DNA of 47,972 bases from a virus (lineage: Duplodnaviria; Heunggongvirae; Uroviricota; Caudoviricetes), in the IMG/VR virus record IMGVR_UViG_2531839374_000006; one strand, written 5' to 3'. Made by a program: the position numbers. Position 1 is the first letter of the stretch, and every line of letters starts with the position of its first letter. Of this stretch, positions 38,601-41,600 are shown piece by piece.

Positions 38601-41600
38601 GATTCAGAGCAAAATGCGTCACAATCCTGTTCAGCGAGGCGCTTTTACCCATTTTCGGCCTTGCACCAATCACTACCAGCGAACCACGTAGCACATGTTT
38701 GGGGGCCATAAGCCGATCCAGAGAGCTAATCCCCAGCGTCAGACCCGCTGCGTTCTCCGGGCTGGAAAAGCGACGCTCAAGATCATCAATCCAGTCGTTA
38801 ACCACATCACTTACCGGGCGCAGACCGCCTGTTTTTCCTGTTCTGGCATACTCTGCCACCGTGCCAATGACCTGTTGAACTGCGCCAAGTCGTTCTGTCG
38901 CACTCGTGTCTGTCGGCTGATTCATGATCCCGATGCACGCATGTAATTTTTCCACCGCGTACCGCTGGATGGATTTTTCCCGCACAATCCCGGCGTAGTG
39001 AACCATCGCCGATAGCGTGGCACTCCTGCTGATTTCAGCAAGGTACGCAAAGCCACCAGTCTCAGCATCCAGTTTTTTCGCCTCGATCACGTTCGCAAGG
39101 CTGAGCAGGTCCGTAGGCTTTCCGGCGCGGAAAAGTCCGCGAATTTCACGGAAAATAACCCTGTGCGCCGCAACGTAAAACGACTCCGGTTTCAGCATCG
39201 AATACACCTGCCCCGCACGCTCAGTGTCGGTGTTTACCATCAGGCACCCCAGCACTGCCTGTTCGGCATCGACCCGGTATGGCACCGGAAAGGTGTTATC
39301 TGTCATTTGCCCGCGCCTCTTTGACAGCGACATAGCACCGTTCGGTGATCAGGTAATCCAGGTTTTTACGCTTCCAGAACCCACCGCTGCCATTGGGACG
39401 ATCTTCCAGCATCCAGCGACAGTTCTCAGCAACGTATCGCAGATAGGACTCCCATCGCTGCTGGTCAAAACCGAATTTCTGCCAGAACGTCCGCAGATTT
39501 TTTTTCCTGGTATCCGTCAGAATTTTCACTGATGGCATTTCAGGCAGGATTTCGTGATAGCTGTCCAGAACCCTCTGCCAGTCGATTTTGTTTTTGCGCG
39601 ATGACTGACCTGTGGATCTGCGTCAGCAGATCCACCAACATCAGGTTCATTGACTGGTTCAAAAGAGTGACTGGTTCTGGGTGCAACTCCTGCACTGGCA
39701 ACAGGTGCAACTCCTGCGCTACCCGATGCATCTGATGCACAATGTAGCGAATTATTTGCACTATTCCCCGGTAAATTTTCTGCACCATCCAGATGAAGGA
39801 GATAGATATTACTTGTATTACCTTTTTCACCTTTCCGGGTGATTTTTTTTACCAGCCCGGACTCACAAAGCGCCGCAATATGATTAATCACAGAACGCTT
39901 GCTAATCTCGCACTGGTCAGCGATATACTGGTAGCTGGGCCAGCACTCGCCCTGATCGCTGGCATTATCAGCCAGCTTAATCAGAACCAGCTTACGCAAT
40001 GGATTACCCACTTTAATTTCCATTGCTTTTGCCATTAGTTTCATGCTCATATATAGAAACCTCGTCTGGTGCCGAACCTTCCTCCGGATATAATCTGTGA
40101 TTCCCCAATCAACAGAACCAGAGGAGGTTCGGCATAAACATCAATGCACAACGACAGAATCGTCGGACGACCCACCACCGCTGAAATGTGCTTTCCGGTA
40201 AACGGCCTGAACTGCGTCATCATGCGCATCAATTGCCGTACTCAACGCTTCCTGCGCCGCCAGTAATGCACGGCGTTCCAGGGTATCGAAGATACAGAGT
40301 CGGTGACGCAGCTCGCACGGAAGAATTGCCAGAACCGCAGGGATCAGTTTCTGAATTTTTTCCCTTTGCGCTTTCGTTTCACCTTTTAACCAACGATGAT
40401 AGATGTTCTGCTGATTATTCCAGTCCTTGCCTGGTGTCAGAGACAATTCACCTCCCCCCTGGCGCAGATATTCTTCAGTCAGTGCGTTGGCAACCCACGC
40501 CTGCCCTTTTTCGGCTGCCAGGGCTAACAACACTGATTCGATGTGCTCATGCCTGATTTTCATGAATCATCCCCCGTGAATTTTGTGTGCTAGCCTTACA
40601 TCCAACAGGTAAACCGTCGGTTGGGTTGGGGTACAAATCTGGCCGCAACTCATGAGGAGTAACCCCAGTTGCAAGGTAAATTTGGCGAACTCGTTCTCCT
40701 GTCGGCACTCGACCATGGTATTCATTTACCCATTTGTGTATTTGGGACGGCCAGGCCCCTATTGCGCGCCCTAACGGGCGAATACCACCAGCAATCTTTA
40801 TTGCTTTATCCAAAGCAGTCATACAATCCTCCACTTCAATCAAACACAACAATTGTTCACTTAAAAAGAACATAAGTCAACACCCTGAGAAATTGTTAGT
40901 GTTCACTGAACGGTTATAATTGCCAAATGGACATGAGAAAAAAGCAATACGACACCCCGCTGGCAGAAAGGTTAGATACGATCTCGCAACAGCATCACTT
41001 AAGCGGTTCAGATTTAGCGCGTATCGCTGGTGTAGGTCGCTCATCAGTTAACGCATGGAAAAAAAGAGGAACAATCAGTAAAGATTCCGCGGCAAAAATT
41101 GCAGAAGCTACAAACGTATCCCTTTCCTGGTTGCTGACAGGAAAAGAAGATAGCAATAGAGAGACACTTGATGATGATGAGAAAGCCCTGCTTGATGTTT
41201 ACAGAAATCTGCCACCTGTAGAACGCAGAAATATGCTTGCAGCTTTTCAAATGCGACTTCAAAAACTGACTGAATTTTATTCAGAATACGTTGACCCAGC
41301 AACGCGTCAAAAATAATTCTTTATTTTACAAAACAATACCGCCGAAAGGCGGTTTTTTTTGCCTTTTATGAATTCATGATGTTGACATATGTTCATTTAA
41401 AGAGAACAATGTATTCCATCAAAGCACAACGGTGCGACAGGTTTTAGTTCCGCCACCCGGCGTTAAGGGGAAATGAGGTCAGCATGGATACTATCGATCT
41501 TGGCAACAACGAATCTCTGGTATGTGGCGTGTTCCCCAACCAGGATGGAACGTTCACCGCCATGACTTATACCAAAAGCAAAACGTTTAAAACCGAAGCT

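Follow-up and report, generated by a model that had tools for sequence, protein, structure and literature searches.

An origin of replication inside the gene for the initiator protein is the classical lambdoid arrangement. The layout of such an origin has been described, and in phage lambda the minimal unwinding unit consists of the iterons nearest the AT-rich tract together with that tract (PMC7466680). The records of phage L and Sf6 carry an annotated rep_origin at the same relative position as the repeats treated below, and there an AT-rich tract follows the iterons. Here, we analyze a stretch of 47,972 nucleotides from a tailed virus (Caudoviricetes; IMG/VR record IMGVR_UViG_2531839374_000006), referred to in its full length as the window, with respect to a gene for a putative replication initiator and the origin that may lie within it. 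The gene resides at 39296..40050 (all coordinates are those of the window) on the minus strand, which is its coding strand. It comprises 755 nt, while its intact counterpart has 756 nt and encodes a protein of 251 residues (WP_000062044.1). A sequence-only reading of the window had proposed an O-like initiator split over two frames with iteron-like repeats inside it, and had offered either a frameshift or two genuine genes as the reason for the split. We consider it very probable that the window contains the replication module of a defective prophage, that its initiator is inactivated by a deletion of one nucleotide and that a putative origin lies inside the initiator gene. The host is probably Shigella flexneri.

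Domain composition of the initiator

In the window, the gene is divided into two open reading frames (ORFs) in different frames. ORF1 (40050..39526, minus strand), the stop of which lies where the sequence-only reading had placed it, encodes 174 residues: an N-terminal domain of the helix-turn-helix (HTH) family HTH_36 (residues 17-67), a linker up to residue 153 and 21 out-of-frame residues (TKSTGRGFWTAITKSCLKCHQ). ORF2 (39538..39296, minus strand) encodes 80 residues that correspond to residues 172-251 of the intact protein, starts at the internal Met172 and is identical to RefSeq WP_001141377.1 from S. flexneri. Both halves match PHROG families of O-like initiators. In Pfam, HTH_36 was found with E = 4e-13 and DnaD_N below threshold, the two together spanning residues 17-85. 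Scans down to E = 1 returned only HTH_36, DnaD_N and other HTH families and no match to the lambda O model, Phage_rep_O. For the C-terminal domain or ORF2, no family was obtained from Pfam and NCBIfam, and a sequence search of the Protein Data Bank (PDB) yielded only chance matches.

Over residues 1-165, identity to the replication proteins of SfV (orf39), mEp460 and ST64B amounts to about 70%, while residues 141/159-251 share 41-46% identity with the C-termini of P22-like gp18 (phage L, SE1Spa), HK022 O and Sf6 gp43. The C-domain alignment opens with the motif Q-V-D-YHE-LPE, which is conserved in the latter proteins. The reconstructed protein of 251 residues thus has two parts, an HTH N-domain and 95-110 C-terminal residues homologous to gp18, and is, as judged from these alignments, a mosaic of an SfV/ST64B-type winged-helix N-domain and a P22 gp18-type C-domain. 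The earlier assignment to the P22 gene 18 type holds for the C-domain only; the N-domain is of the HTH_36/DnaD_N kind seen in SfV orf39 and not that of lambda O. Note that the contiguous gp18-type C-domain is present in the intact allele but not in the window. The segment IDWQRVLDSYHEILPE (residues 156-171, including YHEILPE) falls between the frameshift and Met172 and is encoded by neither ORF.

Iterons within the initiator gene

A search for GTGCA-N5-TKCAC with up to one mismatch revealed five 15-bp dyads on the minus strand within 105 bp (39681-39785), at spacings of 24, 21, 21 and 24 bp. In the direction of transcription, these are iteron 1 (39771..39785, GTGCAGAAAATTTAC, one mismatch), iteron 2 (39747..39761, GTGCAAATAATTCGC; the SfV copy at the same place reads GTGCAAATAATTCAC), iteron 3 (39726..39740, GTGCATCAGATGCAT), iteron 4 (39705..39719, GCGCAGGAGTTGCAC) and iteron 5 (39681..39695, GTGCAGGAGTTGCAC). 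The last is a perfect 5-5-5 dyad and ends two bases from the box described below. At the same tolerance, both strands of the remaining ~48 kb hold only five such sites. The array covers nucleotides 266-370 of the 756-nt gene and so provides more mid-gene iterons than the at least three to four that we had set as the mark of an origin of this type. Repetition in the 755-bp region also exceeds chance when the dyad pattern is disregarded: the longest exact direct repeat has 14 nt, a length reached in none of 300 shuffles, and eight 10-mers are repeated where 0.35 would be expected. The sequence-only reading had noticed two copies each of two repeats. Their positions are real and their occurrence lies above chance, but the number was too low. 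The pair of GGTGCAACTCCTGC (39680-39693 and 39704-39717) falls in an array of five dyads, and the pair of TGACTGGTTC belongs to the 35-bp box.

Homologues carry three to six dyads in the corresponding position, and the sequence of the arms depends on the clade. The form GTGCA...TKCAC is found in SfV, mEp460 and Pseudomonas PseuP_222, GGGCA...TGCCC in Min27-like members, TGCCA...TGGCA in Klebsiella/Aggregatibacter-like members and GTGTA...TACAC in low-GC contigs. The predicted recognition helices vary along with them: KRSVMNHIAAL goes with arm class GTGCA, RSTVKxHIRxL with GGGCA and (K/R)(S/T)AVRxHIDAL with TGCCA. This tracking of arm class with recognition helix is the pattern that would be expected of iterons bound by that helix.

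A conserved 35-bp box next to the iterons

Two bases after the last dyad begins a 35-bp element, a putative conserved origin box (39644..39678, minus strand; AGAACCAGTCACTCTTTTGAACCAGTCAATGAACC), that encodes RTSHSFEPVNEP. It contains both copies of TGACTGGTTC (39651-39660 and 39668-39677) as well as two copies of GAACCAGTCA, which are spaced by 17 nt and lie in different reading frames. In a comparison of eight diverged homologues from Escherichia, Pectobacterium, Shigella, Pseudomonas, Klebsiella, Vibrio and Aggregatibacter (gene GC 0.40-0.60), the box turned out to be the most conserved DNA of the gene, with a third-codon identity of 0.94 versus 0.56 in 37 N-domain codons with an invariant amino acid (Fisher p = 6e-6). 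A search of viral contigs for related loci had returned only near-identical genes of the SfV-like kind. For a wider view, one genome per bacterial species was sampled by N-domain peptide patterns only, which yielded 80 loci. The 28-nt core of the box is present with at most four substitutions in 69 of these species representatives and exact in 14, whereas shuffled sequence differs from it by 12-15 substitutions. In the 69 loci it lies 300-444 nt into the gene, in frame in all but two (67/69), at host GC contents of 0.38-0.61. Its codons come close to being single-codon positions (AGA, ACC, AGT, CAC, TCT and GAA at 1.00, CCA and GTC at 0.95). The share of the top codon is 0.99 in the box compared with a mean of 0.58, and two to six codons, at invariant residues of the N-domain (Mann-Whitney p = 1e-5), a contrast that is somewhat inflated by prefiltering of the sample at four or fewer box substitutions. 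Since synonymous sites are conserved, selection acts on the box as DNA (or RNA), and not solely on the encoded peptide RTSHSFEPVNEP.

More than 120 viral contigs likewise contain the exact core, in genes for 227-341 residues with several types of C-domain. The hosts of the box family include Enterobacterales, Pseudomonas, Vibrio, Aeromonas, Shewanella, Pasteurellaceae and at least one alphaproteobacterium. N-domain and box occur together in Thalassospira lohafexi, an alphaproteobacterium (three substitutions), and in a metagenome-assembled genome of the Cardiobacteriaceae (one substitution), both of which lie beyond the customary enteric, Pseudomonas and Vibrio hosts. In the remote relatives Pseudomonas LESphi3 and PP9W2, dyads are followed by GAACC every 11-12 nt. 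A grouping of HTH_36-type initiators with class-specific dyads and a GAACC box includes the window, which has the invariant N-terminal segment VGNPLRKLVLIKLADNA, the dyads and the box in frame 300-450 nt into the gene. The same type of N-domain (56-82% identity) is encoded on "plasmids" of ~40-50 kb (NZ_CP148393.1 with 44.6 kb, NZ_CP118695.1, NZ_CP112899.1, CP080634.1 and several Arsenophonus plasmids), which could be phage-plasmids or circular phage genomes that use such an origin.

Literature searches with the box and iteron strings and with keywords retrieved nothing relevant from the open-access literature, and the ZF40 genome paper contains no discussion of an origin. A near-invariant box in place of the AT-rich tract appears to be undescribed. 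Inspection of the box by eye only, with no formal test, gave no convincing consensus for DnaA boxes, IHF or Fis. We tentatively suggest, while regarding it as somewhat short of an even chance, that the box (a GAACC core recurring at intervals of 11-17 nt; AGAACCAGTCACTCTTTTGAACCAGTCA in the majority of members) is the near-universal and so far undescribed origin core shared by a very large family of phage initiators with a winged helix. Strands would be opened or the helicase delivered at the box in place of an AT-rich tract, the box would be recognized by the invariant N-terminal segment or by a shared host factor, and the dyads would set phage-specific recognition.

Instead of being an origin element, the box might be a recombination "boundary sequence" at which modules of N-domain plus iterons and of C-domain plus helicase are swapped. 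SfV-type homology indeed stops exactly at the end of the box (39644), the box joins many types of C-domain, as seen in the genes for 227-341 residues, and the Sf6 record has annotated boundary sequences of the Casjens type ("bsq"). A natural hybrid from E. coli (L226 1741-2304, GCA_044088695.1) fits this idea as well: its N-domain is of the Min27 type with six repeats of 21 bp (GGGCAGGAGCTGACC), and the box is followed by the same C-domain and helicase as in the window, so that the modules have been exchanged at the box. This informative C-domain variant came from a cluster member; a megablast search of E. coli genomes with the C-domain half hit only the nine genomes described below and no diverged alleles. 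On the other hand, second-order selection is unlikely to hold ~28 nt near-invariant from Xenorhabdus to Pseudomonas and Thalassospira, and the distant relatives keep the GAACC periodicity of 11-12 nt and not the exact sequence, which argues for a structural or recognition role. A box that serves for recombination and not for initiation is unlikely on these grounds, though it deserves to be kept in mind. The two roles are compatible and not exclusive.

It is improbable that the repeats are nothing but coding repeats of a low-complexity Ala/Gly/Ser/Pro linker, with the origin located elsewhere. The dyad spacings are multiples of three and SAGVAP-like peptide repeats are encoded, which would suit this explanation. 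However, the symmetry of a 5-5-5 dyad cannot be explained by the protein, arms and recognition helix change together, the copies of GAACCAGTCA lie in different frames, and the synonymous sites of the box are close to fixed across host GC contents of 0.38-0.61. In addition, phage L and Sf6 have their annotated origins at the matching position.

The sequence-only reading had further listed a 20-bp palindrome and an AT-rich run. The palindrome is present as an inverted repeat, GTGGATCTGC-TGAC-GCAGATCCAC, with 10-bp arms (39612-39621 and 39626-39635) and a 4-nt spacer. It lies above chance: perfect inverted repeats with 10-bp arms occur at three loci in the whole window versus 0.36 expected from shuffles. 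The other two, with arms of 10 bp or longer, reside at 28918-28944 and 33801-33824. The palindrome is located beyond the junction, toward the C-domain, in the portion of the gene that moves together with C-domain and helicase; ZF40 lacks it. In L226 it reads GTGGATCTGT-TGAC-ACAGATCCAC, the innermost pair having changed from C:G to T:A on both arms such that the dyad is kept, and both changes alter the protein (A to V, A to T). Conservation of the palindrome by one compensatory event is suggestive only. The AT-rich run turned out to be weak. The lowest GC content in 40-nt windows is 0.35, at 39740-39779 and 39800-39839, a mild dip over the first two dyads, and directly after the iterons, where an AT-rich unwinding tract would be expected, the 35-bp box is located with 57% A+T. 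In sum, comparison with relatives favors a lambdoid ori layout in the gene, as had been claimed, except that a box stands in place of the AT-rich tract and that the palindrome belongs to the C-domain module.

The split reading frame

Nine complete E. coli genomes match positions 39250-40100 at 99.8-99.9% identity, each with 852 nt compared with 851 in the window. Alignment with CFSAN029787 (NZ_CP011416) is 100% identical over 851 nt save for a single gap, A6 versus A5, at 39591..39595 on the minus strand (T5 on the plus strand). This single indel relative to near-identical intact orthologues, one base in 851, lies at codons K153/N154 and changes the sequence from codon 154 onward, after which ORF1 continues for its 21 out-of-frame residues. 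The other eight genomes are likewise one base longer than the window and carry the same annotated 756-nt coding sequence. Four of the E. coli records were inspected; WP_000062044.1 (251 residues) is encoded in three of them and a protein with a different accession in the fourth, RMDEC465. A6 was found in all intact alleles that were aligned or read, as well as in the hybrid allele L226. Single-frame homologues are also present in isolated phages, namely ZF40 (57% identity, 100% coverage), Vibrio 381E49-1 and V039C, and none of the phage records examined has the split form with two ORFs. Such an arrangement in related functional phages would have spoken against a frameshift, and the frameshift reading stands. 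From these comparisons, the two ORFs are best taken as one gene broken by a deletion of one nucleotide, the first of the two options originally offered.

It is very improbable that the ORFs represent two genuine genes, one for a DNA-binding protein and one for an 80-residue helicase-interaction protein, that are translated by termination-reinitiation and work together. The start codon of ORF2 (39538-39536) lies 10 nt upstream of the stop codon of ORF1 (39528-39526), which would suit reinitiation; the ORFs thus overlap by 13 nt, and ORF2 does not begin 12 nt behind ORF1 as had been stated. Separate PHROG families fit ORF1 (phrog_8540, 196 residues) and ORF2 (phrog_24933, 127 residues), and the allele is maintained in two or more prophage contexts. 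Against this stands the fact that the split amounts to one missing base in an otherwise identical gene. The intact 251-residue sequence was found in 392 contigs, which belong to E. coli and several species of Shigella, compared with two contigs for the 174-residue product, at most four for ORF2 and one 169-residue form, which may overlap. Furthermore, isolated phages have one ORF, IDWQRVLDSYHEILPE is contained in neither ORF, and no Shine-Dalgarno-like sequence was seen before the ORF2 start codon when the sequence was read by eye.

Neither is it credible, except at a very low probability, that the gene is really intact and that the frameshift stems from an error of sequencing or assembly, even though a change from A6 to A5 is a length change at a classic error site. 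The 174-residue product is encoded on two contigs (Logan) from assemblies of independent sequencing runs. One of the run assemblies (L009) is 100% identical to the window across 3572 nt, frameshift included, and another (L008), with 99.7% identity, shares the frameshift next to a different immunity region. EJZ64346.1 from S. flexneri 1485-80 is a 169-residue version with the same nonsense tail as ORF1, and ORF2 (WP_001141377.1) resides on four contigs, one of 4.27 Mb. A run of five is short for errors of this kind, and no change has occurred in the two A8 runs of the gene. Because the same broken product is found in independent S. flexneri assemblies and runs, the A5 allele is a real mutation of a lineage and not a read error. 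Finally, a programmed frameshift, with slippage at the A run restoring the full-length protein at a set ratio, can be given next to no weight: some phage and IS genes do use A-rich slippery sites and the site is an A run, but a run of five is too short for transcriptional slippage to be efficient, inspection of the sequence by eye revealed no slippery heptamer in the required register, relatives are single-frame with A6, and the two-frame state is rare and derived.

The lesion is recent, since the rest of the gene and the helicase gene are undamaged. As such, the pseudogene is ordinary, and its parts are already present in databases as "hypothetical protein" and "replication protein". For annotation, it follows that ORF1 and ORF2 are to be recorded as one pseudogene.

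Proposed origin function and its loss

The following mechanism would account for these observations. The intact 251-residue protein would bind, as dimers and via its winged helix, to the five dyads in its own coding sequence. The adjacent 35-bp box, which by its position may be the counterpart of an unwinding or loading element, would be the site of duplex opening or helicase delivery. The gp18-type C-domain would then recruit the DnaB-type helicase of the phage itself, whose gene follows downstream with an overlap. With the A5 allele, the product consists of the DNA-binding domain, the linker and the 21-residue nonsense tail. ORF1 should still be a DNA-binding protein, and while the truncated protein may continue to occupy the iterons, it could probably not bring the helicase, so that the prophage would be unable to start its own replication. 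ORF2 would be a remnant and not a gene.

Several points weigh against this interpretation. The evidence for the origin is comparative throughout, the match between helices and iterons holds at clade level and comprises only about four or five independent events, and a lambda-like AT-rich tract is absent from the origin region of the window. As far as inactivation is concerned, neither the rest of the gene nor the helicase has suffered further damage, and the frameshift allele occurs in at least two prophage contexts and so is tolerated. The broken allele could be useful to the host, e.g., as an origin-binding repressor, and reinitiation at ORF2 is conceivable, given the short distance between its start codon and the ORF1 stop.

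If the interpretation holds, the prophage, which carries an ipaH-type gene, is to be treated as unable to self-replicate. Beyond this case, class-specific dyads with a near-invariant box instead of an AT tract are common to hundreds of temperate phages, including Stx- and serotype-converting ones. The box may serve as a handle for locating prophage origins, the family as a system for studying co-evolution of initiator and site, and the box possibly as a target against replication-dependent induction of toxin phages.

Genes surrounding the initiator

The partner replication gene follows immediately downstream. It is intact, encodes a DnaB-type replicative helicase (37903..39306, minus strand; Pfam DnaB and DnaB_C), and its product is identical to WP_000131761.1 in 467 of 467 residues. 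As claimed before, the second ORF overlaps its start. According to the annotation of orthologues, this is the ATG at 39306, which gives an overlap of 11 nt with the end of the initiator gene; the longest ORF starts at 39333. In E. coli RMDEC465 (NZ_CM177019.1), the initiator gene is intact and the helicase gene is annotated as a pseudogene with an internal stop; the same replication module is thus damaged at a different place in another lineage. Upstream of the initiator gene, a YdaT/CII-like gene and a Cro-like gene reside on the same strand, while a gene for a CI-like repressor is divergent. Because of these neighbors, the initiator and the surrounding genes can be assigned to the early-right operon of a lambdoid-style prophage. 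We also considered that the initiator gene might contain a promoter or terminator, but the scan gave none beyond shuffle expectation and the idea was dropped.

State of the prophage

The suggestion of a decaying prophage is borne out by other parts of the window. The prophage of CFSAN029787 is 97-99.6% identical in blocks. The baseplate J gene is interrupted by IS2 (7506-8836). This element is 99.9% identical to the IS2 of CFSAN029787, which sits in a DUF977 gene instead; the two prophages have thus decayed independently. A stretch of ~3.3 kb (33231-36533) has no counterpart in the intact relative CFSAN029787 and holds a gene with HTH_3 and Peptidase_M78 domains (IrrE-like, 33240-34397), an unassigned ORF of 230 residues (34348-35040) and an IS630-type DDE_3 transposase gene (35193-36224). 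The right end of the window also differs from the CFSAN029787 prophage. A complete ipaH-type gene (LRR_TTSS and NEL E3 ligase) lies at 779-2542 on the plus strand, where the E. coli relative has sitABCD.

Some further features may be recorded. Positions 1-351 (plus strand) contain the end of a second ipaH-type copy, bases 1-300 being repeated at 2192-2491 with 98% identity. A gene for a 673-residue lytic-transglycosylase/tail protein (12437-14458, minus strand) is intact in the window and annotated as frameshifted in CFSAN029787, so that each copy has its private lesions. Four tRNA genes (Gly-tcc, Thr-tgt, Arg-tct and Met-cat according to ARAGORN) are located upstream of the lysis genes at 29558-29868 (minus strand). 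The matching tRNA cluster of the E. coli relative is annotated as Val, Thr, Arg and Ile, and this block is only 91% identical.

Comparison with known systems

Replicators with winged-helix initiators are also known from iteron plasmids (pSC101 RepA, R6K pi, RK2 TrfA), in which direct repeats about two helical turns apart adjoin an unwinding element. Unlike the situation in the window, the plasmid iterons lie outside the rep gene. The lambda O/ori-lambda system, present also in the Stx phages 933W and P27, resembles the locus in several respects. The initiator there combines an N-terminal DNA-binding part with a C-terminal part that recruits a partner, the module is located downstream of cro/cII-like genes, and the initiator gene contains the origin in its middle part, with several dyad iterons that also encode the linker (PMC7466680). 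The differences are the following: the N-domain of the window protein is of the HTH_36/DnaD_N type and does not match Phage_rep_O, there are five iterons of 15 bp and not four, a GAACC-periodic box replaces the AT-rich tract, and a DnaB-type helicase takes the role of lambda P as partner. The window was compared in addition with P22 (gp18 and gp12), HK022 (O and P), Sf6 (gp43 and gp44) and phage L. Lambda iterons, for their part, have a length of 19 bp.

These P22-type systems have the homologous C-domain (41-46% identity) with the motifs Q-V-D-YHE-LPE and CRWM. The 11-nt overlap of the genes for initiator and DnaB-like helicase recurs in phage L, HK022 and Sf6 as well as in ZF40, and the putative origin of P22-type phages is annotated at 43-54% of gene length. 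They differ from the window in that N-domain and iterons are unrelated, a true AT-rich tract follows the iterons, and the C-domain, which is out of frame in the window, is intact. SfV orf39, ST64B sb42, mEp460 gp43 and cdtI gp46 are similar to the window protein in the N-domain (70-76% identity at the protein level, ~88% at the DNA level) and have the same dyad class, with five copies, and the same box, but possess another C-domain and no adjacent helicase gene, the homology ending at 39644. The closest full-length homologue in an isolated phage is gp14 of Pectobacterium phage ZF40, followed by gp15. It is encoded in one frame, shares 57% identity over 251 residues and has both the overlapping helicase gene and the box. 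Its iterons belong to a different class (CTGTGCC...GCACAG), the 10-bp palindrome is missing, and the gene carries no frameshift.

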